A stretch of 20,000 bases of DNA from Vermamoeba vermiformis (taxonomy: Eukaryota), in contig JBEWZL010000123.1 of the NCBI GenBank assembly GCA_045837725.1, positions 433,110 to 453,109 of the forward strand, written 5' to 3'. The first letter of the stretch is position 1. Every line of letters starts with the position of its first letter. The notes beneath the pieces are model-generated. The model searched no databases, was not told the DNA's origin, and saw nothing but the letters and a program-made list of their open reading frames with translations. The position numbers and the translations under genes were made by a program. Positions 2,861-20,000 of this stretch are shown here, one piece after another.

Positions 2861-5799
2861 ATGGAGATAACAGGCCTTGCGTTGAAAGAAGCTGCGAACG
2901 TAGCTTCTGGCAAAGATCACGATGGTAAACTCATTTCGGCGTTAGCCGAATTTAAGACCAATTTATTATCATTTTACTTGTTCTTTTAACCTCGCAAATA
3001 TCACCTTATTTTATTTTAAAGTGATTAATCAGCTGAACTAACATTTTAATTTCGCTAGAATACGTCGTGTATCGAGACGATGCAATTTCTATTTTAAAGT
3101 AAGTTACAGTAACTTAATATTTATTACGCACTATTTTGTGATTTTCGTCTCACCACATAACTGACTTTCGCAAATCTCAGACACAAAAAACGAAGCAAGC
3201 TTGGTAGCCGAGTTTTATTTTTACGCTTGGCGTTTTTAGTTATCTATATGCTTGCTCTAGCACTGCAGCAAACTCCTGACCGGTACGTGTTTCGAAATCT
3301 AAAAAGTGCGCCAAACTAAGATCTCGCGTTGCTCAGCATTGCAAGCATTGTGAAGCCTGTTAGAGCGAATTGGGATCCTAGTTTTGACGGTATTAACAGT
3401 CCTGTAAGTTTGACAGTTGTCGTTAGCTGACAATTTTACTAACTGCAATTTCTCTGTACAGATCGATTGGTATAACGTAAGTAGGCAGCCCAAAAATTAT
3501 TTAAAATTAATTTCAACAATAGTGGATGAGAGGGACGTTTGCCGGAGTAATTTTTGTGGGCACAGATCCAAGCGGCCAACCGCTGCCTCCGCGAGAGATC
3601 AACTTGGTCGCGCAAGCGAGTAAACTCATGTCTCCTGTTGTCATTGAAAGGAATAACGGAGGAGAGGACAATTGTGATGGTAAATACACTGTTCTGTAGA
3701 AATTTTCAACAACTTTTTCGTAGGTCGGTTTGCGGATGTTTACCCTGAATGTTTCGATGACTCGTTCACAGGTAAAAATATGTTACTTCATGTTTAAATT
3801 TCTAAATATGTCGCTAGAGCTTGATCTTAACGTTGACGAAACGACTTTCAACTCGGTCACGTTCAACGACTCGTTGTTCTTAGTCTCCAGCGATTACAAC
3901 GTGATTATCATCCCCGGCAATGTTTCAGATCCCGTGGCGGTCAATTCAATGATCAGTGATTTGCAAAGTCGAAACTGGATTGATCGAACGACTCGTACTA
4001 TTCGTGTTTCATTCGTGTTGTACAACGGCAACTGGAACGTGTTCATCAGAAACGACTTGGTACGTCCATATAATGTTGCTAAGATCGACTATTAACTCAA
4101 TTCAGACCGTTCTATTCACTACGTCCGGCACTGTGCGAAAAGAAATGTTGATTTCACCTGCCAAATTGGAACTGTACGAAGATCGAGTAGACAAGTTCCG
4201 TGGATTTTTGGAAGTATTTTTGCTTCTCGCTATCATTGGCTTCATGGTGTTTGAAATGCACTTCGTTCCGTTGAAGAGAAAAAAGCCGTTCTGGAGACCC
4301 GAAAATGTTGATAAGATGCTTTGGTTCTTGGTAAGCGTTGATCGTTATTTATGCGTGCTGTTGTGCTAATGTCTATCAGCTCACTCTTTCCTGCGCTGCT
4401 TTGTGGTGCGCTATCATCGGTGTATTCGACGCCGTAGTCTTCGACCCAGCTACTCTGTTGACCGACATTGAAGAAACCAACGGCATTTTCTTGTCGATCA
4501 AGCTGTTCACTGCCTACCGAGTGTTGAGCGCGTTAAGTAAGAGTTTGATTTTATCGTATATCTTCCTTTCTTTTTCTGACTCGTTGACAGATTTGTTGTT
4601 CACCCTCTACTTGACTGTCAAGGACATGCGTCTGTCTACGAACTTGTCTCTTGTGTCGCGCGCTATTAATAGAGTAAGAATAACCTTTCCTGTATTTTTA
4701 GCGCTAACAAGAAGTTTAGGCTGCCGCTGACTTGGTGTTCTTCTTGTTCTTGTTCTTCGTAGTATTTTTCACCTACGCCTTCATCGGCTTTTACTACTTT
4801 GCCGAAGTTGACCCACAATTCAAGACTTACCTCGCTGCGATTGAGTCGCTGTTCCAATGGTTGCTCGGTCAAGTTATTTTTGACACGCTGTACAAAGAGA
4901 GTCCCGGTGTTGGTCACTTGTACTGCTGGGGCTTCGTCATTGTGTTGATTTTCTTGTTGGTAAGTAATTCGATACATTGTATTGTGCGACGTTTTCTCAT
5001 CTCTTGCAGTTCAACATGCTTATCGCTATCATTATCGATGCTTATGGCTTCGAAAAAGAACAAACCGCAAAACTCCGCAAGACCAAGCTTGGTATCATCG
5101 AAGAGTTTAAATCATTGGACGCCAAGCGCAGGAGGAAACAAATTCAGAAGGGCAAGCTCACCACTGATCAAATCTTGGAGCGATTGCAAGCTGAAGATAT
5201 GGAGCTTGAGCGCGTGTTGACGAAATCTGATTTGCAGCAAATCACGTAAGTGTTAGAATCCGTAAAAACAATCGCGAACTCGTTTCTAAGCGTGGTTTTA
5301 GCGACTGGAGCGAGGAGCAAATCAGCGCTTTCTTGAAGAAGTTTGGTGAAAAGAACACTGCTGGCAAGTTGAACCGCGATCAACAACAGTTGATGGAAGA
5401 GTTCGAAAAGCAAATGCAATATCAAATGGCAAAGATGCAGCAGGAAATTTTGGGTGCGTTCCTACACATATTTACCTAAATTTGACGATGAGTGCTAATT
5501 CGATGTAAAACAGCGCAAGTGGCCACGTGGTTGGGCAAGCCCGTTCCTGAAGCGAATATTCGTCCTATGCTCAGCCCGCGAAAGGTCGTTAGTCCGCGCA
5601 ACAATAATGCTTCGCCTGTGACCTTGGACGATAAGTAAGCTGATATGATTTACCGTGTCATAGTAATTAACGCTGTTTTTGTTATTATAGGAACATTCGT
5701 ATGAGTTTGATCAATCCTGTAACCGTCAAGAACCTGCAATCTGAGACTAAACACGACTCTTCAAGCTCTTCGAGCGACAACGAGGCAGACAACGTCTAA
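2861..5799 (+). CDS. Polycystin-2 (PKD2/TRPP)-like cation channel, multi-exon
   Basis: Polycystin-domain signature LQSRNWIDRTTRTIRVSFVLYNGNWNVF, hydrophobic TM segments, pore region FKTYLAAIESLFQWLLG, S6 FLLFNMLIAIIIDAY, and a coiled-coil-like C-terminus. Includes a 15-nt microexon at 3462-3476. Last exon 5691-5799 ends DNEADNV-TAA. Confidence 0.88.
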
Positions 5800-5950: not shown

Positions 5951-8484
5951 ATGGAGTCCGAGGAGAAGAGCGGAACCGAATCTGGCGATCTGCGTTGGGT
6001 ATTGGCCAAACCAGAAGGAGATCTTCCTCCAGTAATGTTCGGACATTCCGCTGTTATTTGGAAAGACTCAATGTATATTTTTGCTGGTTATTCTTTCGGT
6101 TATTGGCGAGATCTCTTTCATTATGATTTAGGTATGCCTCTACAATTTTTAAAAATATAATTACCTTTATCTTTACGTTAAATATTAAATGGCACGACGC
6201 GTGCGAATAATAATTTTCATTTTGAAATTAACGCTCAATTTTAAATTTGATTTGGCTGGAAATTTAATATTGTACAGTAAAAAACGAGTGGAACGATACT
6301 ACAAGAATTAAGAGCGAACTACCTGCGCATTTGGTTGGTCGACAATACCACACAGCGGTCGTTTATGAAGACCAGATGTGGGTTCTGATGGGCGCTGGGC
6401 CCGGACAAGTTTTAAAAGAGTTATTTACGTATAATTTCCGTAAGTTAAATACAGATTAAAGAGATCAAGTATTAATTTTCAAAGGAACTCACGCGTGGTC
6501 ACCCGTCCCAATCAACGACGATTTTCCTCCCATTCGTTATCTTCAATCGGCAGTTGTATATAAAGATGCGATGTGGATATTCGGAGGAAAATTGAACACG
6601 TACAATAACGATTGCGTGAACGACCTACACCGCTTCGATTTCAGTACGTGTCATCAAAGATCTGGCAATTTAAAACCTAACCGTTTCAATATAGAAACAC
6701 TTAAATGGACTGAAATTAAAGTCCCTGATTATCTTCGACCTGCGCAGCGTCGCACACATTCAGCAGTTATTCACAACGATTGCATGTACATATTTTCAGG
6801 CTGGAACGGCGTCGATTATTTCGATGACTTGTGGGAGTTTAATTTCGGTAAGTTAATTGAGACGCGTGATTAATATTAATTCTAATGCAATTCTACAGAA
6901 TTACGTCGCTGGTCCCTTGTACACACGCTCGGAGACAAACCAACGGGTCGTCAGTTGCACACCGGTGTCATGTACGACGGTGAAATGTGGGTGTTTGGCG
7001 GGTACGATTCACATGAATTCTACAACGACTTGTACAAATTCAACTTCGGTAAGATAATGATCAACTGACAATTAATAGCACTAACCTCGGGCAGAAACAT
7101 GCATGTGGACTAAATTCGAACTCGATCACAAACCTGGTCCGAGAAATGCACACTCAGCAGTTGTTTATGAAGGTGCAATGTACATATTAGGAGGAAACAA
7201 CTTCTTTGAGCCTGAGGATTCGCTGTGGAAATTAGGTAAGTAAATTGTTCGATACGGTCTTCGGCTAGGGATTAATGAACTTTAGAATTGCCGCATCGAC
7301 AACGCTTCTCTTTGAACGAACAATTAACAAATGATTTTCATGGATTACTCAACAACCAGCGTATGACGGACATACACTTGACCATCAACGGCAAAGAGTT
7401 TCAATTGCACCGATTTATGTTGTTGGCACGATGTCCGAAATTCCTGCAGCTTGCAGAGTCAGACAAATTGCTGCACTTCGACCTGTTCGTGGGTGAAGAG
7501 GGTGCCGAGTTACTTGAAAACGTGATCGACTTCATTTACACGGATCGACTGTCCGTGTTTCGAAAAGCAAATTGGGAGACATTGTTTGAAGTTTTGGAGT
7601 TTGCTCAAAGCATCAACTTTGACCAGCTTGTGCATGCCTGCGAGTACATGATTTCAGCGCGTGCCCGAGTGGACAACATTAACGAGATCGAAGCTCGTGC
7701 TGCCGGGGCACCCAACTTGTTGGCCTGGTACGTTTACGCGAGTGTTGTCATCCTATTTTATTAATTAACACGATATAGGTGTAAATATTTCAGCGATAGC
7801 ACGGTTGATATGCGTGACCCTGCTCTTCTAGTCCCATTGTTGTTTGAACCGAAAGAACCCTCTGAAGAAGTGCGTTTGACTTACGAGCCAACTCTCGCTA
7901 AAGATATGCTGCGATTATACACTGACCAAGTACAAACCGACTTGACAATAGTAACCCAAGCACGTAGCTTTTCTGTGCATCGAACGGTTCTCCTTGCACG
8001 GTAAGAAAAAGTATAATAACGCTATATTAAGCGGTGCTGACAAATGTAGGTGTCCCTATTTCGAAGGTTTAATGCATTAAGTCAAAACACAGCAGAGAAC
8101 ATTAACCACGATTTGAAAATACCCGAAGAAGATTTTGAAACAATGTTGAAGTTCATCTACTCCTCTGAAGTGCACTTCAAGCCAGAGAGCTTCTTCTCCT
8201 TGATTGCTGAAGCTTCATTTTACATGATTGATTCTGAACAGTTCTACGAAGCATGCTTTGAGCATTTTGAGTCTCATATCTCACTGGAGAATATCTACAA
8301 TTTGTCCAAAATTGCAGCACAATTCCCCGAGATGACCACCGTTAAGAATTGCTTGCTGGAGTTTGTCAAGAAAAATTGGGCAACTGTGAGGCAGCAAATC
8401 AATGATTGGCAGGTTGGTTTACTAGATTCTCTAGATTGGACAAGAGCATTATGGGACTTCAAGAAAATAGAAGATGTAGATTAA
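5951..8484 (+). CDS. Kelch-repeat plus tandem BTB domain protein (LZTR1-like Cullin-3 adaptor), multi-exon
   Basis: Six Kelch repeats (GHSAVIWKDSMYIFAGY; YHTAVVYEDQMWVLMG; QSAVVYKDAMWIFGG; THSAVIHNDCMYIFSG; HTGVMYDGEMWVFGG; AHSAVVYEGAMYILGG) followed by two BTB domains (TDIHLTINGKEFQLHRFMLLARC; TDLTIVTQARSFSVHRTVLLARC). Confidence 0.9.
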
Positions 8485-8574
8485 TAAACGTAAAATCACT
8501 TACTGGTGTTACAGATTTTACTAATACTTAAAAAAAGTGACATTTGCCTGACCTGTTTTTCTTAATTATTCACC

Positions 8575-9295: not shown

Positions 9296-10270
9296 TTAGG
9301 TTGGTGCTGAACAAAGTTGGAAAGTGCACATCCATGCACACAAGCAATTGTTTAGCCATCTTGTCTTCCACCTGTGGTTCTCGGATCTGCAACAGTTTGG
9401 CCTCTGCTAATTTGGGCTACCATCGTAAAAGTTAGTACATGAGTCCACTTCCTCATAAATAATGTACTAACATTTTTTTCACACCATAGTTTAATAAAGT
9501 AAGAGCAGCTGTGGACGAGGAATGCTGGTGTAACTCCAATGATGTTGTGATGGACCATGCTGTAAATTTTGGATGCTTTCTTGATTTTCTATGATGAACT
9601 TGTACAGGATCAAAGAAGCTAACCATTGATGAGGTAGGTATTACTTCGTCTCAAATTGACCCCAGATCAAACCCTTGCCAATGCTCAAAAACAAAATGTG
9701 AAGAAACAGTGAATGGAACTATTAAATGATGCTATGAAAATTAATTAAATCTGCCAAGGATCAAAACAAAAGATTTGTCATCCTCAAACTATTAGAATAG
9801 ACAGTGGACACATACCTTGCTAGTCAAACAGAAGAAGCCAAATAAATTTTGTCATGTGGGAAGAATTAAAACTTATCTATTTAATACCCACTTATTTCAT
9901 TTTCCTAGGAGTTAGGGGCATGATTTGAGGATCCACTAAGTTGATGAAAATCTCAAAAAGTAAAAAAGTTGTCAATTTTTTTGTGAAAATATTGTGCCTT
10001 CAGGTCAATATTAAAGGGATCTAGCAGATTTACCAAAACTTCAAGTTCATCTTCTGCGGTGTGCATCAAGATGCTGCAGCAGTGGTTGACATAACATGTA
10101 CATGTACATTTTACCTTTTGAAATTAAGTAATTTAGTTTGTGATTGAAATGGAGATTGACACAACTCCAACTTGTGAATTGATTTTCAATGCTGTTTGAA
10201 GTGAACCTGGTATTGACTGCTACAGTATTAGAACTCAGCAACGTTTGCGCATGCTCCAATACAAGCATAC

Positions 10271-10337
10271 GCATTTATATAGGGTCTAGGGTTATATATC
10301 ACATTGGGGTTAGCATTTTACAGGGTTAGGGTTATAT
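10271..10337. repeat. Imperfect direct repeat with telomere-like TTAGGG/CTAGGG words
   Basis: GCATTTATATAGGGTCTAGGGTTATAT (10271-10297) and GCATTTTACAGGGTTAGGGTTATAT (10313-10337). Confidence 0.7.
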
Positions 10338-10387
10338 TCTCCATCCGGATGAATCACCCTAAAAACCTTCTCTTTTTTTACTATTAA

Positions 10388-11028
10388 AATGCGAATGGGT
10401 TTACTAAATAATGCGCATGAGTTCTCTAATAATGCGCATGAGTTCGCTTAATTAGTACAAAATTGTACCAAGAGTACGTTGAAAAATAAAGTTTATTTTA
10501 CAGTTACAGTACGTTGTACATGAAATTTCTATGTCAATTCCCATTATATGGGATTTGATTCAACTCATTCGCATGTAGACATCAGCATGAGGACATTCGC
10601 ATGAAGACATCAGCATGAGAACATTCGCATGCTTCATCCGAATGACTGACACTAATGGGGCATGCGCATGTAAATTAAACATGCAAATGTATTTACTATC
10701 ATGCGAATGCAGTAACGGACTGTCTGCCATGCGAATGTACTCGCTGCCATGCGAATGCGATCACTTGACTGTCATGCGAATGTACCCGCTGCCATGGTGA
10801 TCACTTGACTGTCATGCGAATGCAATCACTGTCATGCGAGTGTAATCACTTGGCTTTCATGCGAATGCGTTGGGTTTCATGCGAATGCATTGGCTGTCAT
10901 GCGAATGGACTAACTCGCTGTCATGCGAATGCACAAGCTGGCTAACATGCGAATGCACTCCTTGGTTGTCATGCGAATGCTACGAGCAAGTATTAGTCTG
11001 ATGCTTGGCATTGCTCATCATGCTAATG
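10388..11028. repeat. Array of ~24 copies of a 10-bp quasi-palindrome CAT(G/T)CG(A/C)ATG in two opposed blocks
   Basis: CATTCGCATG at 10566, 10594, 10622, alternating with CATCAGCATG at 14-bp period. Perfect palindrome CATGCGCATG at 10661. Eleven exact CATGCGAATG copies between 10700 and 10979, with motifs mostly 20-28 bp apart, plus variants. Confidence 0.92.
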
Positions 11029-11576
11029 TACTGGGATGCTGAAACAAGTTAAGTCCAGCAGTGCGGAGTGACACGTGTCAAATATCTCACCTTTGCGCGG
11101 TGGCACATTCAAATACTCGTCGCTCAGTCGGCAGCGGAATTAACGCGGAACTTTGGTCTGGTGGTGTCAATCGGCTGTTCTCCAGTCTCGCTCTCCTGTG
11201 CCGTGCTGTCCTCACTCGTGCTATTATTAGCCTCAGTGGCACTCTCCGTCTCTTTCTTCACCACGCGCTTGGGTCGCATGATGAGTGCACGCGTGCAACT
11301 CTGCACCAGGGCACATTTCTCCGCAATCTCCGCACTCGAGATGACGGGTCAAGTACTCGCTGTGCTCGCTCAGCTACGTGCTGCTGTCACTGCGAGTGTA
11401 CTGTGGCCACCACGAGTAGAAATCGTTGCTCGTGCGCATGTGAAGCACCACCAAATAAACTAGAAAAAACAAGTAAATAAGAGTTTGAAGTAAATACATA
11501 CATAATATTTATTAATTGTTTTTGTTTTTTTTTTGAATTTGATATTAAATATATATATAAAATACTCGTGGACAAA

Positions 11577-14496
11577 TTACATCGTCTTTTGTCTCTTCTC
11601 CTCTCGCTCTTGTTCGAGAAGTTTTGCCAAGGAGAACGTAGTAATCTTTCTCTTCTTCTCGGGGTTGGCAGCGCCGGCGGGTGCATTGTTAGACGGAGTA
11701 CTACCATCGTTGTTGACCATGACAGGAACAGGCTTGTTGTACGAAACCTTCGGAACAGGCACCGGTGTAGGTGATGGCATCACTGGCACAGGCAAGGGGA
11801 CTTTTTGCTCTCGTTGTCCTAGTATGACCTTTGGACGACAGTACTTGACGACGGTGTTGGGCTTAGGTTTGCTTGGTTTCGGAGTCATGCGAGCACTCTC
11901 GATGGACGTAGTTCTCCGGCTACAGTCACCGTACACAAGCTTACGGGATGGCCCTGGCTTCAAGTTCGTGTTTGCGCCAGTTCGCATGTTGGTGTTTGCG
12001 TCGGTTTTCAGGTTGGTATTTGTGCTTGTGTCCTTGTTCGTTTCCCATTCAGGTGGAGCATTCAAATCCAAAGGAGGCGTTGAGGGCGCGTTCGAATCCT
12101 CAGCAACAATCGAGTTGATCGTATGGGTAGGAGAGTCAGACGAAGAAAGTGAACTGTGAGCAGCGTGGTAAGAATCAGACTCAAGAGCATCATCAGAATC
12201 AGAGACGATATGAGAAGATTCGATGGACTCGCACTCGGCATCACTCTCGTCGCTGTCCTCGCTGGCCTCACTTTCTTCGCTTTCTTCGCTTTCTTCGCTT
12301 TCTTCACTCTTGTCATCACTTTGGTCCTCGTCGCTCTTGTCGTCATCACCGGAATTAGCGCCAGAACCTCCTGATTTGCCTCCCGAGCTGGATCCATCAG
12401 CAGAGTCGCGTGAGCTGTCATCATTGCTCTCCTTCGAATCAGATGAAAAACCAGAAGACAGCTCCATAGAGCTGCTGTCAAGGCTGGACTTTTTTGTCGA
12501 GTAGCAACCTCCGATTGTAGCCCAGTACGTGTTGACGAGTGACATGAACGCAAGTAGCTTGGGCCCAGGCAAAGTTTGCTTGGTGCCATCTTTGAACAAG
12601 ACTTCGAAGCAAACGGACTGTCTCTTGCCAACGAACTTGTGACCAACGATTCGGTCAATACTGTCTGCAAAGTCGTCATGAGTCTTGTCGTAGCGCTTCT
12701 CAAACTTGTTGATGACGCTCGCCATGGCCTCGGAAGGAGCTATTCCAACCGTCTCGTTGACCTCCTTCAGCGTCTTTTCGTTGACACCAGCACGTTGAAC
12801 TCTGTCGTAGTGCGTGCTCATAACGGCAGGTGAAGTATTGATCAGTGCTGCGTGCTTCTCGCTGAAAAACTTCGAGATGCCTTCGGTGTCGTTGTTCAAG
12901 TGATGTTCGGTCAGAAAAGAGACCAGCGCACGACGGAAATAAGCGCAGCTGATCGCTCTTCCTGGGAAGTAACTCGCAACGACATTGCTCACCACCTTCG
13001 AGAGTGTAGTGAAGTCTAAACGAGCGAAGGTTAGCGACAAGATGAGTTTGAAACAATTACTTACTAGGTGCGTTACCGTCTCGATTGACCCACATGGACT
13101 CAACTCCTTCGTTACGAACCAGAGGCAAGTAGTGCTCGAACCAAATTCGCAACGGTACTGCAAACGCTGCAGGCAGCAAGAAGAAATCTGTCTTAGCTCG
13201 CTTGACTTTTTCCGGTGGTGGGAAGAACTTGACAGTGTTTCCCTCAAAGACAATGTTCTAATTAAATAATTAGTAAAGTATTGATTAACGGAGCCGATTT
13301 GTAGTTCGTACCGACACCGTCATTGAAGCCGTGAACTGTCGTCGTTGTCCTCCAAGATACATCATTCCAAGGACGAACAAGTTGCCCATGAAGTTGAACA
13401 TTCCTTGTCGCGACAAAGCTGAACTTTGTCGCTCTTTCGTCAAGAACTTGTCATCCAAGTTGATGTAATACACCAACTTGTCACAGATGTACGCGTTCAA
13501 CTGCCGTAGCTCGTCTTGATGAAGCCACTGCCCAAGTAACATCAGGTTCTCAATCACCATTTTATTCGCGTTAGCCTTGGCTTCGTCTTTCGCTTCTGCA
13601 GGTCAAAATAGTATCAGAATCGTAATCGTACAGAATATGTTCGCAACTTACTTGCACAAGGAGCACGCAGCAAATCCTCCACTGCATCAATCCGTGCCCT
13701 GTAATTGGCAAACTCTTCGAGACCCTATTACAGAATTAGATTACACCCCATGACCACAAGTAGTTACTTACGTGAAGATACTTCAAGAACATTCGAATAA
13801 TCTTCAGGCAATTTGCAATCGTGCTTGCAGACTTGCCCATGGATTCGTACCACCGCGGAAAAGCGGCCGCCACGCGAACGTCCAGTAGATGACGAAGGTC
13901 TACTACGACTGGTTTCACTTCCGTATCGACAAAACGAAAGAAGATGCCAAGCATAGAACGAGTTTCGGCGCCGCGATCAGAGCCTGTGTTGGACAAGTGC
14001 TTCTCTTTCACCTTGAGTTCGTCTGCGGCAGAGGATTTTTTCCTGGTCTTGCGCTCACGTTCGATGTAAGTATCGAACAACTTCGGTACCTTGAAGTACT
14101 TGACCAAGACTTGATCAAGCGAGAGAGCATTAATTCGTAGCGGCTTTCCTGTTCTTGAATCCCCTATTAATAAAGTTAACAAACTTAACCACCGGGACTA
14201 ATTAGTCTTAAACTTACTTTCGGCAACAGCAAACTCCTTAGTTGCTAAGTCTTCAGGTACGTCTTCCATATCAACGACTACAGGAGCGTCGCTATATTGA
14301 AGCAAAGCCTTTTTGACGTTACTGAGGTCAGTGCGAAGCCTTTTAATCTCCGGCGAATCTGCTTAGACTGTAAGATTCGGTTACAGAATTACTGAAAGGC
14401 TTACCATTCATCGTCGCTGTAGACTCTTTTTTCTGATCCGTGTCCTACAAATTGTCAACAAAAATTTTTAAAATTCTGTTGTGTTACCTTCTCCAT
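11577..14496 (-). CDS. Tyrosine recombinase (phage-integrase fold) with C-terminal chromodomain-like domain and acidic/Ser-rich tail, ~856 aa, 8 exons
   Basis: Exons 14496-14488, 14444-14405, 14358-14218, 14163-13772, 13724-13652, 13595-13312, 13257-13065 and 13015-11577 join through GT-AG introns into one stop-free frame. Core-binding helix GKSASTIANCLKIIRMFLKYL; catalytic motifs GGQRRQ (R), PEKVKR (K), SCAYFRRALVS (HxxR position), LINTS...THYDR (Y). Confidence 0.82.
12271..12308 (-). repeat. Coding 9-bp tandem repeat (SEE)n in the YR acidic tail
   Basis: CTTTCTTCG repeated about 4 times on the + strand, encoding SEESEESEESEE on the - strand. Confidence 0.85.
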
Positions 14497-14628
14497 GATT
14501 GCAAAAGATAAAGATTGAAAAAACGCCTACGAAAAAAAAAATTGTTAACCACGCGACTTTTGACGAACTAAAATTTATAAGTCCAAATATAGTACGTTCT
14601 GAAAATAAAATTAAGTAATCTCACAAGC
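14497..14628. promoter_or_regulatory. Probable bidirectional promoter between the YR gene and the small divergent gene
   Basis: Only 132 AT-rich bp separate the two divergent ATGs (14496 on -, 14629 on +). Function is inferred from the arrangement. Confidence 0.5.
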
Positions 14629-15482
14629 ATGGAACCACACAACCAAACTCCACTCCTCGATCAATACTACGGCAGTGATATGAGCGACGAGACAGTTGAG
14701 CAGGCATATCTTAAGATTGAGGAGCTGCTTAGCTACGCACGAGAGGACAGTAACAACACCATTCTTGTTGGCGACGGCGATGATATTGAGTGCGAACAAA
14801 CCTTACCCTATGAACACGAGAACGACGAGAACGACGAGAAGAACGAACGGGAAGTATTATCATGGCAAATCAAGGATCCGCGCACGTGGTTAGAGAAAGA
14901 TATAAATAAATCCCACGCACATGGTTTGAAGACAATTTTATCATGAAATTGCCTGAAGAAGAACGAGAAGAAGTCCGACGGAAATACAACAACGGTAACT
15001 AAAAATAACTCCGCCGGATAACCTCCGGTACAAAAATGTTAGCGATTAATAAATTATGCATTTAATTACAGAAATGGGAGAGAAGTAAGTCTTACCTCAT
15101 TCTAGTCTTAATTTTAACATGCCATAGCGAACTGCGATGCTTATGTTCGAAAGAACACGGACACTTTTACGTGCACTCAAAAGATTTTTCCGAGCAATGG
15201 TTTGGTAGAGGTGCGTTAGCTGGATTGCTCGGAATGACAAAGAACTCTTTCTGTTCTAAGCTATCGATCTATGTGCTCAATTGCCCGGCTGGCTGCGCAC
15301 CGTTCAACACGTGCAAAGTCTTTCATTCTAGCGGCAACGGCAGCCCAATACGCCCAGAACGTTACTATACGTTGGAAGAAGCCAACGATATACTGAGACA
15401 ATGGCTTACGCGCCCAGGAGGGAAAAAGGATTGGGTAAAGAGATTGCACGAGGCCAACGATTTTTTGAAAAACTTACTATAG
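14629..15482 (+). CDS. Small divergent gene: acidic N-terminus plus putative Bro-N/winged-HTH-like DNA-binding domain; apparent frameshift near 14905-14915
   Basis: MEPHNQ...KDPRTWLEKD changes frame to PRTWFEDNFIMKLPEEEREEVRRKYNN. An intron, a 13-nt microexon (AAATGGGAGAGAA) and a second intron follow, then ELRCLC...EQWFGRGALAGLLGMTKNSF...RYYTLEEANDILRQW, ending at TAG 15482. The domain call is by weak resemblance only. Confidence 0.6.
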
Positions 15483-15834
15483 TAGGCTTCTGGGTTATAG
15501 AAATTTAAGGGTTATAGAGTTTAAAGTCCAGTTAAACCCCTTTTTTGTTAAATTTTTGACTTTTTTTGTCTTTTTGCCGTCACTTTTGCATTGAAAAGCA
15601 TGCCAAAATAAAAACACTAAGAGACAAGTTTAACTTTAATTTACTTAGAATAAATGTATGAAAAACAATAAATAGAAAAGAACAGCAAGAGTTTGTTTGA
15701 AGTTTTTTTTATTTTTACATAAAACAGTTACAACTGGTGTTTTTATTTGGCAAGGCAGTGAAAGCAAAGCTCTGCGGACCAAAGATAGGCTGTAGACTAA
15801 AGTAAGTTAAGTAATGTTAAGTTAAACATTGCCT

Positions 15835-16481
15835 GGTGCAATGTGGAACATCCCCTTTGAAAAGCTAAAGTTGAACAAGGGGTGGTTCTACAAGGAGCCA
15901 GGGGTACAGACACATGGAAGACTGGTTTGTGTGGTGCTGGTCCTATGTAAAAACAAAGTCTAACAGGGGGAGGTATCGCATGGAACCAACCTGTTAAAAA
16001 AATTGAAGTTCAAACAAGGGGCGGTTCCTCAAGGAACCGGGGGGCAAGAAAAACTAAGTCCAGCAACCCCGGTACTGTGAGGAACTGCCCTTTGGGAAAA
16101 AATAAAGTCCAAAGAGGGGCCGGTACGGCAAGGAACCGACCCTTGAAAAAAAATAAAGTCCAAGAGGGGTCGGTTCCTCAAGGAACCGGGGTCAAAAAAA
16201 AACAAAGTCCAAAAAGGGCCGGTTCGGCGAGGAACCAACCCCTGAAAAAAACTAAGTCCTACAGGGGTCGGTTCCTCAAGGAACCGGGGGTAAAAAAAAC
16301 TAAGTCCTGCAAACCCCGGTTCCATGAGGAACCGACCCTTGGAAAGAAACAAAGTCCAAACTAGGGTCGGTTCCACAAGGAACCAGGGGTGAGGAAACAA
16401 AGCCCAATTGAGGCTAGTTCCCCGCAGGAACATAGTACTGGGGCAGGCTAGGTCTTGAAAGGGCTGGTTCCACTTGGAACA
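15835..16481. repeat. Tandem array (~49-50 bp period, ~13 units) of 16-bp palindromes GGTTCC-N4-GGAACC separated by A-tract/AAGTCC linkers (parS-like)
   Basis: Cores start at 15835, 15884, 15972, 16023, 16071, 16122, 16172, 16221, 16270, 16318, 16369, 16416, 16466, with a degenerate unit near 15924. GGTTCCTCAAGGAACC is exact at 16023, 16172 and 16270. Confidence 0.95.
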
Positions 16482-17570
16482 GCTCATCCAGGATTAGCAC
16501 ATCGAGGTGCCAGTTCAGAAAAAAAGGCTGTATAATGAATTTGGCCCAGAAAACAATTAATTGGGCATGTGCCTAGTGGCACAAGTGAAAAAATCAAGTA
16601 AAAGAAATAAATTTGAGCTAATCTGGAATAAAAAATTTTGACATCCAAAAATTAGCCTTGGTGTCGTAAAAATTTGAAACCAATCATGTAATTAATGGGA
16701 AAACAGTGGCATACTATTTCAGGTATAGCCACTGCTCAAGAAATTAAAAAGTGACTTACCTGGCAACCGTGGCTCAGATGGGCAAACAGTCTCACGCAGG
16801 AGTGCACAGACACGCAGAGTGTATTACCACACAGGAGTGCACCAAGCACTCGACCATAGGCAACACACTGTGCTTGTCTGTGCATGAGAGTGGTGGTGTT
16901 GTGGCTGCGAGAATAGATAAACAAAAACAAAATCTTTTGCGAATTTTTTTTGTTGTGGTTCAAAGAGTGAACAAAAACTTTTTGGACCAATCACATCACA
17001 GGAAGTGTTAGTGTAGGGCTCCAGGACCCTAGCATGCAGTAGCAGTGCTAGAGGCAATGCAAGGCACTACACTGTCGATCTACTAGTGCAAAGACCACCA
17101 TGCAGCAAGATCTTGGTGGGGAAGTTAAGTTTTGGAAAGAAGGTCCGAGACTTAGGCATCCTATTAAGTAGAAGCTCTGCAACTCTCCACCCGGTCCCTG
17201 CAGTTGTTAGTTGAAAGGCAACCAAATGAATGCACAAGGAAGCCCGTGTGTAATTATTTTTTTTTGTTGTGAAGCAAAGTTGTGAAACAAAAAGTTTTTG
17301 GACCAATCCCAGAGAGCCTGCTGTGAATCTCACAGGGTGGAATTGTGCAGGAATAGGAACACTCACAAGTTAGGCCATTGCTGGTAAGCACTGGGTATTA
17401 AGGGAAGTATAGCTATGAAAGTTGACACATTCCAGTGTTCTTCGAAAACCGATCCGATATTTTTTCACAACCAATGACTAAATCTGCCTAATAGAAAGCA
17501 TCATTATAGTTAAACTCACAAGCACCAACAAATTAGAGTCACTAGGTAATAAACAAAGCCAACAGCAACG

Positions 17571-18230
17571 AGAAATTTCATTCGAATAAAATTTATAAAA
17601 TTCTTCTGCAGTAGATTTTTCTTGCGCTTACTTTGAGATTTAACGCTGCTCAAATGGGTTGCCAATACCTCATATCAAGCTGTCTGCAATATATGGGCAA
17701 AGAGAAGGTCAACAGGCACCAAACTAGCAAGGTGAGCACAGATCTGAATCCGATCCAAAGTCAAATTTTTTTTTGCTTTGCTTACTATACCTGATGGCAG
17801 AAATAATAGGAATTGATGTGGAGCTCTCTATATTAAAGCATAAGTAGCTGGGCCAGTAGAAAGGAGAAATTTCGGGTTAATAAACTTAATAAAAATCTTC
17901 CCCAGTAGAATTTTATTATTTTTAGTGTTGCGAGATTTCATGTGGCTTAAATTGTGATGTGTGCTTCATATTGAGCTATCTGCAGTATCATTCAATAGAA
18001 CAGGTCAACAGGCACGAGATGAGCAACATGAGTCCCCGATCTGAACTCGCATCCAAAGGTATTCTGGATGCAGGTTGCACAATGGCCCTGGTGACTGCAA
18101 TGTGCAAAATTAGTGAAAAGGTTTGAGAGTGAAAACCCACACAACTGAGTCAATATAAGGGAGGTATAACTGTTGCAGAAGGTTGACAAAATCTCCCCAG
18201 AATAATTTTTTCTCTCTAGGGAGATTTCAC
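17571..18230. repeat. Diverged ~295-bp tandem duplication (two copies plus part of a third)
   Basis: Matching blocks ~295 bp apart: AGAAATTTC at 17571/17866; CATATCAAGCTGTCTGCAATAT vs CATATTGAGCTATCTGCAGTAT at 17671/17967; AGGTCAACAGGCAC at 17706/18002; AAAATCTTCCCAG vs AAAATCTCCCCAG at ~17892/18188. Confidence 0.75.
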
Positions 18231-18288: not shown

Positions 18289-20000
18289 ATGAGTAACACA
18301 AATATACGTGTTATGTCAGCAGACCTTGCAGCTGCTGTGCAAAGTCAACAGAGATCTTACGTAGAGATCTCAGATCAGTATTGGAAACAGAATGTTCTGG
18401 TAAGTATTGCTCAAATAATTAATTTAACTATGTAATAATTTTAATAATAATATTTTAACCTTTACAAGGTTATTTTGGAGGGTAAAATTGCAATTTAATT
18501 TTTTTGTGTCAGATTTGACTTTTTTCTTTTCACAGCTCCTCCTAATTCAATGTATTTTAATTAAACAATATTCCCTATATATTTTTACATATAAATTAAT
18601 AGCTTTTTAAATAGTCACACCAACTCTCTAATGAGTGGAAAATGGTCACGTGTGCCGAACTCAAGGCAAATCCCAAGGTCTTCAACAAGGCAAATTGCTG
18701 CGTCCCAGACTGCAAAGAGAAGGCACAGTACTCGTAAGTAACTCCAATCTATTGTTTTCAAGCCTAACTAATCCCTTGTAGCATCCCCACGTCAATAATT
18801 GATGATGGTGCAGCAGTGTGCAAAAACCACCTCAGACGCTTCACCATCACGCAAAGCTGCCACCCACTAAATAAGAAGGAGTCAGTTATTTTTGGTAGAG
18901 CGTAAGTATTGTCAGTTTAAATATATTATTGACTCTAATTTCCTTTCATGTTAGGTTCAACATCCGCACTCTAAACCGTGTTGGTCTCAATCGAGTGATC
19001 AACAAAATAGAGAAGCATGGTTGGGATTCGAACCAAGGATCCCTCCATGGTGTCATTGTGACAAATGGCAAGATAAAAAAGGTTGCCATCTTTGCAGGTA
19101 AGTAAAAGTAGTTGTTTTTTTTGCTTTATTTAGGTTATTAACAGTTTATTGTAGGTCAGCATCGATTTGAAGCTCTGATTTACTTGTGTGATCTGCACAA
19201 GAAGAATTTGGAGCATCAAATCCTTCTTTATGCTTTTGACTCCGAGGTGGAGATGCGAGCTGAAGGACACAGCATCCAGTCTAAAGAACAGACTGTGCGT
19301 AAGATGTCCTACCTGGAAAAGATCCTCCAGGTGCAGCATTTGGCTCATGAAGCTTATGGGGATACCCAAGATAATTGGTTCGCAGGCAATCGAACCAAAA
19401 ACTATTGGGATGCTATTGCTGGTCGCAAACTTCATGGTAAGTTGATTTTTGTTTTAATTAGATCTTTTTTAACCATTTGTTAAAAGATGTTGAATGGCAG
19501 CTGAGGTCGTTGGATTATAATGTCCTCAAAGAGCTTTCAACTTACCATGCCAACCATGAGGCAAGGAAAAAGTTCTTCCAAGTGTAAGTAATAACCAATA
19601 TTAAACCTCTAAAACTAAAAATAACATATTCTTTTAGCCCTTTTCTGAAAACTGACCTGCAGTGCTTGGCAAAATTGCCAAGGAAAGATCAGAAGATTTT
19701 CATGGAGCGACAGCAAGCACAGTGGCAGGAGGTTCACCACAAACGTAAGCAAATAGTGTGAGGTATTTCACCATTCTAAATCTTTTTTTTAGGTGCTGAT
19801 GTTAATTCAGCCCAAAATGTTAGCATTATGGCTGAATTGTTTGTTGATCATGCGGTGAAGGCCTTTGACAAGCTTCGCAAGCATTACAATGCGCTGGTGA
19901 GTTCCTTTTCAATTTTAAATTATTAAAAAAAAAACTGAATGATTCGCACATAGGAGGCACAAGGCAAAGACCTTGCTGCATTTAAAAGGAAACTGTGCCA
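18289..20000 (+). CDS. ParB/Sulfiredoxin-fold protein with an N-terminal Cys/His zinc-finger-like motif, multi-exon, 3' end beyond the window (5' exon structure uncertain)
   Basis: Spliced translation: CCVPDCKEKAQY...VCKNH; FNIRTLNRVGLNRVINKIEKHGW...IKKVAIFAG|QHRFEAL (intron 19098-19154 splits the GQHR motif); VRKMSYLEKILQVQHL; RSLDYNVLKEL; LAKLPRKDQKIF. The frame is open across all exons from 18615 onward. Confidence 0.75.

Follow-up and report, generated by a model that had tools for sequence, protein, structure and literature searches.

The locus examined here raises the question of what a regular array of palindromes is for, what kind of DNA carries it and which protein might read it. The array occupies positions 15835..16481 (no strand assigned) of the window, by which we mean the whole stretch of DNA analysed, the 20 kb with which contig C123 ends. 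A sequence-only reading had described it as about 13 phased, parS-like cores GGTTCC-N4-GGAACC with A-tract linkers, spaced 47-51 bp apart save for one degenerate unit, and had interpreted it as a centromere-like loading array for a neighbouring ParB-like protein. The cores were borne out, as 13 of them are found with at most 3 mismatches to the pattern, 5 being exact. The spacing was regular with one exception as described, but measured 48-51 bp plus a single 88 (49, 88, 51, 48, 51, 50, 49, 49, 48, 51, 48 and 49 bp from core to core). At up to 2 mismatches, the 20 kb hold 10 matches, all inside the array, compared with 0.30 +/- 0.50 in 200 shuffles, and the 24 exact cores in the genome all cluster near the ends of 8 contigs. 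Each of the 13 units consists of an A-tract, AAGTC and a palindromic box of 26-28 bp, the flanks of which flip orientation from unit to unit. With 10.5 bp per turn, the period of 48-51 bp corresponds to 4.6-4.9 helical turns and places neighbouring A-tracts out of helical phase; hence the word phased holds for the regular repeat of about 49 bp and not for the A-tracts, and a helically phased bend is ruled out. A structured RNA was also considered and rejected, since the 13 Rfam matches are generic hairpins that all lie far under the gathering scores.

The likeness to parS is uneven. The last core, GGTTCCACTTGGAACA, agrees with the parS form used in the sequence-only reading at 14 of 16 positions, and the first core terminates in GTGGAACA, both exactly as had been stated. 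Scored against the same form, 12 window cores differ at 4, 6, 6, 5, 7, 7, 5, 5, 5, 4, 4 and 2 positions (range 2-7, median 5), and none of the 12 has a CACGTG centre. The centre of the window cores varies freely, and the box arms are conserved in the window's family.

The surroundings of the array were next of interest. The genome (a 43-Mb assembly in 309 contigs) is that of an intron-rich eukaryote with short introns and TTAGGG telomeres. Towards its end the window runs, from left to right, through host genes, sequence resembling DNA next to the C151 telomere, a stub of a type D left end, a tyrosine-recombinase (YR) element and, from 15478, the element that bears the array. The host genes at 3700-5250 and 6000-8500 have short introns and, judged by eye, resemble a channel of polycystin type and a protein of kelch/BTB type. 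Positions 9879..9991 (forward strand) share 91% identity with DNA that lies some 150 bp inside the C151 telomere, which indicates that the window end is subtelomeric. The type D stub of 49 bp (10275..10323, forward strand) follows a host AT at 10273-10274 and is truncated by the YR element (10324..15477, no strand assigned), a tyrosine-recombinase plus chromodomain-like element, which starts with GGTTAGGGTTA and is itself truncated on its right side by the array-bearing element.

Uninterrupted copies of the YR element settle to which of the two neighbours the array belongs. Those on C117 and C183 read AAAACTTAC followed directly by CG(G/A)GGGTGC across the insertion point, and together with the copy on C228 they run past the position equivalent to 15477 with a gene of their own and without an array (no cores in L051-L055, one in L056), so the carrier of the array must have inserted into the YR element. 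The dinucleotide AC at 15476..15477 (forward strand) thus belongs to the interrupted YR element and served as the target. The possibility that the array is part of the YR element is rejected on these grounds. We take the protein to be a tyrosine recombinase from its R..H/H..Y motifs, read by eye; against Phage_int_SAM_1 it scores an E value of 0.088. YR copies (C117, C183, C228, C190, C231 and C16) contain introns and are confined to short contigs and contig ends, the one on C16 on a contig that terminates in a telomere. The telomere-like GGTTAGGGTTA start follows an AG in 3 copies, and AY-type ends, as described below for the array-bearing element, are absent from the YR copies. The YR element may be a second one-ended, telomere-swapping family. 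Tandem CATGCGAATG-type repeats with periods of 14-45 bp are seen at its left end (10380-10990).

The array-bearing element opens with a sharp left end of type B1 (15478..15560, forward strand), a conserved stretch of about 80 bp that starts with TATAG and contains degenerate GGGTTA motifs; 23 ends of B type were found in unrelated flanks. The array is placed 0.36-1.0 kb inside this end. Farther in, there are a 26-bp inverted repeat (16803..16884, no strand assigned), which is matched also in a B2 copy on C99, an internal duplication of about 200 bp (17558..18058, forward strand) containing an AT-rich, self-complementary motif found again before later genes of the element, and the 5' part of an intron-rich, ParB-like gene (18642..20000, forward strand), which continues off the window, the contig stopping at 20000 within the element. 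Two B1 copies, on C272 and C265, are 97-98% identical to the window and provide the remaining layout: left end, array, ParB-like gene, a second gene (gene 2), a last gene and a 200-bp repeat, about 14.5 kb altogether. Even among these near-identical copies the number of array units differs, with 13 in the window, 14 on C265 and 16 on C272.

Altogether 23 B and 32 C left ends were counted, a lower bound as the loci were chosen around search hits. An AC or AT stands directly before 53 of these 55 ends, and before 66 of 68 when the D types are included, against a background of 13%. For 23 junctions an uninterrupted host copy was available, and in 21 of them the AY was already present in the empty site, which identifies AY as the target: insertion takes place directly 3' of a host AC or AT, and the dinucleotide is kept. 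The C-type ends start with 5'-TC and have a hairpin 13-40 bp inside. Left ends often truncate one another after 38-700 bp, forming stacks. On C265 (L031 9212-9290) the first 38 bp of a B1 end are duplicated, which amounts to the insertion of one B1 end into another at an AT. The D and D2 left ends (window 10273-10323; L057, L058, L065-L068 and L037-L039) share the AY target (13/13) and the polarity, and have other tandem repeats next to them in place of an AAGTC array.

Arrays and left ends go together. A B or C end lies less than 1 kb upstream in the same locus for 31 of 34 arrays, and 2 of the remaining 3 miss it only through a locus boundary in between; conversely, 9 of the 44 B/C ends followed by at least 600 bp of sequence have no array recognisable by the patterns used. 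Related families have the same linker and period with other cores, namely GGT(A/T)TCACGTGAAACC, GGT(G/A)CCACGTGGAACC and, in C type, GTCGTCTCC-N4/5-GGAGACGA, and the half-sites of B and C arrays are alike (GGnCGGTTCC / GGTCGTCTCC). It could be asked whether such an array is simply a satellite of the subtelomeres that needs no enzyme of its own and is spread passively, by break-induced replication or ectopic recombination, as the changing unit number and the subtelomeric position of all copies might suggest. We find this hardly credible, as dozens of junctions fall at the same nucleotide, after AY and in unrelated flanks, which homology-driven exchange cannot give. The array is almost certainly a subterminal part of the array-bearing element, and of the alternatives raised by the sequence-only reading, that of subterminal sites of a mobile element is the one that the evidence supports. 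A viral hr-like origin or enhancer, also raised there, fares poorly, for the core pattern was found at 0 loci in viral contigs and the Rep-like exon discussed below is missing from them too.

Whether the element has a second end was judged from its orientation and its tails. On contigs of at least 60 kb, 49 of 49 B/C ends face the nearer contig end, all from 30 kb away or less and at 35 contig ends, and 0 of 61 ends on large contigs face inward, although assemblies that break within long repeats would by themselves account for part of this orientation. C209 contains a whole element, which proceeds from its left end at 14587 to the last gene and reaches telomere repeats 1.4 kb later, and C164 has the same tail, with the last gene again leading into telomere repeats. 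On C8 a left end cuts a B2 element, the remainder of which does not return before the telomere, and on C89 a left end is situated only 0.55 kb from the telomere. Of 7 other contigs with the 200-bp repeat of the B1 tail, 4 have it at a distance of 0.7-1.7 kb from a telomere. No shared or defined right end is seen in the tails of 12 regions compared, which differ among copies in an assembly that is itself incomplete, and host sequence resumes downstream in 0 of 22 informative junctions, most of these contigs ending before the telomere and C8 alone giving the full test. The element is not present at every telomere, as 4 of 5 further telomere-bearing ends (C44, C78, C84 and C151) are without a B, C or D end in their last 10 kb. 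A third Rep-like clade (L101, L104 and L075, on C226, C205 and C149) is observed directly upstream of the repeat that adjoins telomeres, and no left end of it could be found.

These data bear on a more conventional explanation, that of a giant element with two ends, Helitron-like or DDE-like, the right ends of which are hidden in assembly gaps; the array would then hold subterminal transposase sites, and the link to telomeres would reflect an insertion preference followed by truncation. Most copies are indeed cut by contig ends, and with its AT target and its 5'-TC start the C type is reminiscent of Helitron insertion as described in the available text of PMC10288648, to which the hairpin 13-40 bp inside the C end may be added. 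However, this explanation has difficulty with the passage from last gene to telomere repeats on C209 and C164, with host DNA failing to resume at any informative junction, with tails that share no right end, with the lack of inward-facing ends on large contigs, and with searches that return no HUH, helicase or DDE match, and we regard it as rather improbable. That the element moves in a one-ended, telomere-ward manner appears likely to us.

We were curious to know which enzyme could drive such movement. Only the last gene and gene 2 are common to B- and C-type elements. A Pfam search with 16 exons of element B yielded no match (HUH, helicase, DDE and DUF3435 included), no helicase gene was seen in the element, and Pfam and profile searches gave no match to a TnsB/TnsC transposase or to a telomere protein of its own. 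C-type elements (L083/L091, L096/L095 and L070/L090) have a conserved first gene of about 300 amino acids, a second gene and gene 2, and none of these three has a library match. The last gene has 28 exon-level matches in the genome. From script-spliced proteins of 11 loci, leaving out one mis-spliced row, we obtained an alignment of 10 paralogues with 20-77% identity (median 25), in which the intron positions are conserved and 25 columns are invariant. The residues shared by all 10 include D95-x-D97, D285, K-x-Y377 and G-x-R455-x-E457 (C56 numbering); a conserved His pair is not among the invariant columns. The invariant D, D, Y and R-x-E stand in the order N', I, III, IV of Rep_trans proteins, whose motifs are given as D, RxD, T/SxYxG, YxKxxE and RxE, with the tyrosine in a beta-sheet, unlike in HUH enzymes (PMC5714925, in the text available), and the C-type rows read YDKSSE or YHKGSE at the tyrosine motif. 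In RepC, D46, D142 and E214 are the three metal ligands, Y191 being named as well, and the family is called bacterial with a distant archaeal relative, Rep-Arvir, in the accessible part of PMC13107129.

Profile comparisons and models gave mixed support to this assignment. In hhalign runs by blocks against a 23-row alignment of pT181 type, the blocks having been chosen by the analyst from their motif likeness, N', I and IV landed on RepC D46, D142 and E214 with scores of 11.9, 17.5 and 14.0, against 11.8, 12.8 and 13.2 for the best of 15 shuffles, so that the margins of N' and IV are narrow. The block with motifs II-III, which holds the tyrosine, and three control blocks gave no alignment to the pT181-type set, and the whole profile scored 19.2 against it, inside the 12.7-23.1 of 20 shuffles. 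The PF02486 profile found 0 matches in the whole genome with a positive B. subtilis control, a search weakened by the intron-split gene, and the exons of the last gene found none in Pfam, NCBIfam and PHROG, nor did PDB sequence searches. The protein is long (about 1100 amino acids), intron-rich in its gene and interrupted by long insertions, with about 80 residues from tyrosine to glutamate versus 23 in RepC. In a first AF2 model, the tyrosine and R-x-E lie in beta-strands. Two AF2 models of parts of the protein, obtained from intron read-throughs with pLDDT of 65 and 52, drew no Rep_trans chain from Foldseek or VIA, a result that excludes nothing; the best VIA match of these partial models was the START-like 3w9k (Z 6.6, rmsd 4.4, 104 residues aligned), tied with helical bundles.

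Homologues found outside this genome are 10 fragments, 8 of exon size at 28-66% from a phmmer search of 1.84 billion entries plus 2 near matches of alignment A1, for which the search for longer proteins returned 0. The Rep-like exon had no usable match in the Atlas and none in metagenome or viral contigs. A 22-mer of the left end was matched once in metagenomes, in unrelated flanks without AY or array, which we take as chance. One water metagenome does carry DNA of the element, covering 29 of 30 bins, mostly at 95% likeness or higher. Among the data sets listed as containing it, none is of RNA. Three RNA runs under the same species label but from another study and strain gave only poly-A artefacts for the C272 copy, from which silence does not follow.

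At the level of its motifs, we infer that the last gene encodes a putative tyrosine transesterase of Rep_trans type (pT181 RepC / NicK), and a Rep_trans-type protein is, on balance, the probable mobiliser. A different chemistry in an equally one-ended, telomere-ward element would be compatible with HMM and fold searches that do not confirm Rep_trans: the last gene could be another nuclease, gene 2 or the YR protein could act in trans, or the array might consist of host-factor sites (promoter/enhancer or nucleosome positioning). The nearby YR elements are telomere-linked too and start with telomere-like repeats, and CACGTG, present at the centre of sister cores, is a common host bHLH site. Yet the invariant D, D, Y, R and E follow the Rep_trans order, the YR copies lack both arrays and AY-type ends, and in the window's family it is the arms of the box that are conserved, not its centre. 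Taken together, we consider these variants quite improbable.

The role of the ParB-like gene remains to be weighed. The gene noted by the sequence-only reading does exist, beginning about 2.1 kb downstream of the array on the same element, with a possible further upstream exon at about 18290-18410. It encodes a Cys/His cluster, a ParB/DGQHR-like domain and a helical region, then a Q-rich linker and a C-terminal domain off the window, with N-x-R in exon 18956-19097 and an AGQHR motif, a variant of the DGQHR type, split between AG and QHR by an intron at about 19098-19155. The canonical CTPase motif of ParB is of GERR type. A paralogue on C65 is 44-51% identical. The window protein itself has no direct match in the profile libraries, and a search for longer proteins with its exon left 0 of 7 candidates, whereas intronless subtelomeric paralogues match TIGR03187 DGQHR (E 2.8e-6), DndB (E 5e-4), GmrSD_N and phrog_1033 below cut-off. 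The window protein connects to these paralogues by hhalign (E 8.5e-4). A ParB fold is thus backed for the paralogues, and the identity proposed for the window protein reaches it through them.

Further DGQHR/ParB-like genes, mostly intronless, were noticed in subtelomeres (L060 1-1495, L080 8105-9559, L092 1-2214, L195 2847-4541 and L093 3130-3399), and the one on C62/C289 has many copies of a 21-bp palindrome in its flanks, a sequence that C203 and C151 contain as well. For one paralogue (L092 400-1950), the nearest Atlas neighbours are fungal DUF3723 clusters (score 0.95, with a weak recognition of 2009), which suggests that Starship DUF3723 is ParB/DGQHR-like; no paper holding both terms was found in the literature searched.

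Could the array nonetheless be a parS-like loading site for the ParB/DGQHR-like protein in B elements, and the C arrays for the C first gene, serving segregation, tethering or end synapsis? The ParB-like gene follows the array in both B families covered far enough, B1 (C123/C265/C272) and B3 (C65). The sister B2 and B3 cores are nearer to parS than those of the window and often have a CACGTG centre, with GGTATCACGTGAAACC agreeing at 13 of 16 positions with parS TGTTTCACGTGAAACA as printed in PMC8367383 (text available in part). The type of core changes along with the first gene, which is ParB-like in B and a different conserved gene in C, and the intronless relative on C62/C289 has a palindrome family of its own. 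In contrast, none of 5 complete C-type elements shows a ParB-like gene on the way from array to last gene (tblastn E 0.01, by which intron-split genes could escape), even though linker, period and half-site are homologous, and it is mainly for this reason that we prefer another reader of the array. CACGTG centres occur also in C arrays lacking the gene, the core centres of the window vary, the type of core follows the clades of Rep and gene 2 just as closely, and no ParA is seen. The linkage of array and ParB-like gene holds for B1 and B3 and breaks down in the 5 complete C-type elements, and the co-variation of core type and first gene is not specific to the ParB-like protein. With the same architecture in sister elements devoid of the gene, variable core centres and an AGQHR motif, a centromere-like loading array is a minority reading; a parS role for ParB is unlikely, including the broader version with the C first gene. 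We rather favour reading of the array by the Rep or by the shared gene 2, and infer that the ParB/DGQHR-like protein is a family-specific accessory and not the main reader.

With modest confidence, our best reading is a rolling-circle transposon that has one end and moves telomere-ward, with the array as a subterminal set of predicted binding sites close to its origin end. In the mechanism we propose, the Rep_trans-type protein would be loaded on the inverted palindromic boxes and would nick at the first T of the element, the 5' end of which could then be joined to the target 3'-OH after AY in another chromosome end. Displacement synthesis, for which a host helicase or a replication fork would be needed, would have no terminator and so would run to the donor telomere. 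The transferred strand would be the one ending in TTAGGG, such that the recipient tip would be replaced by the element plus TTAGGG repeats, gaining a ready telomere and losing its own tip. On this basis we propose, tentatively and somewhat short of even confidence, a new superfamily of eukaryotic DNA transposons with a Rep_trans initiator (TBP-fold, non-HUH) and a single end, which would replace chromosome tips with itself and a telomere, use the array as initiator-loading origin and build stacked subtelomeres by successive invasions. If true, this would add a third chemistry to eukaryotic rolling-circle mobility and a new way of remodelling chromosome ends. Even if the call of the enzyme is wrong, a family of large, one-ended, telomere-facing elements that strictly target AY and show no transposase that can be recognised occupies no fewer than 35 contig ends. 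The grouping of Starship DUF3723 with ParB/DGQHR proteins is a testable lead in its own right.

The array-bearing element apparently represents a previously undescribed one-ended subtelomeric family. Our literature search, mostly of titles and the beginnings of abstracts with few subscription papers or repeat databases covered, found no eukaryotic Rep_trans and no one-ended telomeric DNA transposon. Compared with ParABS (PMC8367383, in part), clustered 16-bp palindromes, a ParB-fold gene nearby and sister cores at 13/16 to parS are shared, whereas the DGQHR-type motif, the missing ParA, the variable centres and the persistence of arrays without the ParB-like gene are not. Fungal Starships, so far as the accessible text of bioRxiv 10.1101/2021.12.13.472469 describes them, are likewise large, cargo-bearing eukaryotic elements, and their cargo DUF3723 is a weak neighbour of a ParB-like paralogue, but they are two-ended, with TSDs and a DUF3435 recombinase captain on the 5' side, features not seen here; the first gene of our element is ParB-like (B) or another conserved gene (C), with no match to Pfam DUF3435. 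Helitrons and Replitrons are eukaryotic copy-type DNA elements too, with orientation-specific insertion at a dinucleotide (AT/TT; RG) and hairpins near the end. Rolling-circle transposons of eukaryotes are described as using HUH enzymes, and Helitrons and Replitrons with two defined ends (PMC10288648, in part), unlike the present element with no HUH or helicase match and no right end found. To the Rep_trans family (PF02486; pT181 RepC, ICE NicK and Rep-Arvir), the last gene is likened by the order of D, D, Y and R-x-E, a tyrosine that one model puts in a strand and nearby inverted repeats as predicted binding sites; it departs from them by the lack of an HMM or fold match, its long insertions and a protein of about 1100 residues from an intron-rich gene, and the family as described in the available parts of PMC5714925 and PMC13107129 is bacterial and distantly archaeal only. 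Eukaryotic telomeric transposons are said to be mostly retroelements in the accessible text of bioRxiv 10.1101/2024.11.13.623437, which describes bacterial telomeric transposons (PAST; Streptomyces Tn7-like and TnsBC) with one specific end and the telomere as the other boundary. Those differ in a TnsB/DDE chemistry with two bridged ends and in telomere proteins of their own, while the element reported here is eukaryotic with host TTAGGG telomeres, has an AY target and gives no DDE match. What both have in common is one end plus a telomere, as on C209, C164, C8 and C89, a fixed orientation (49/49) and, for the present element as proposed, replacement of the chromosome tip.
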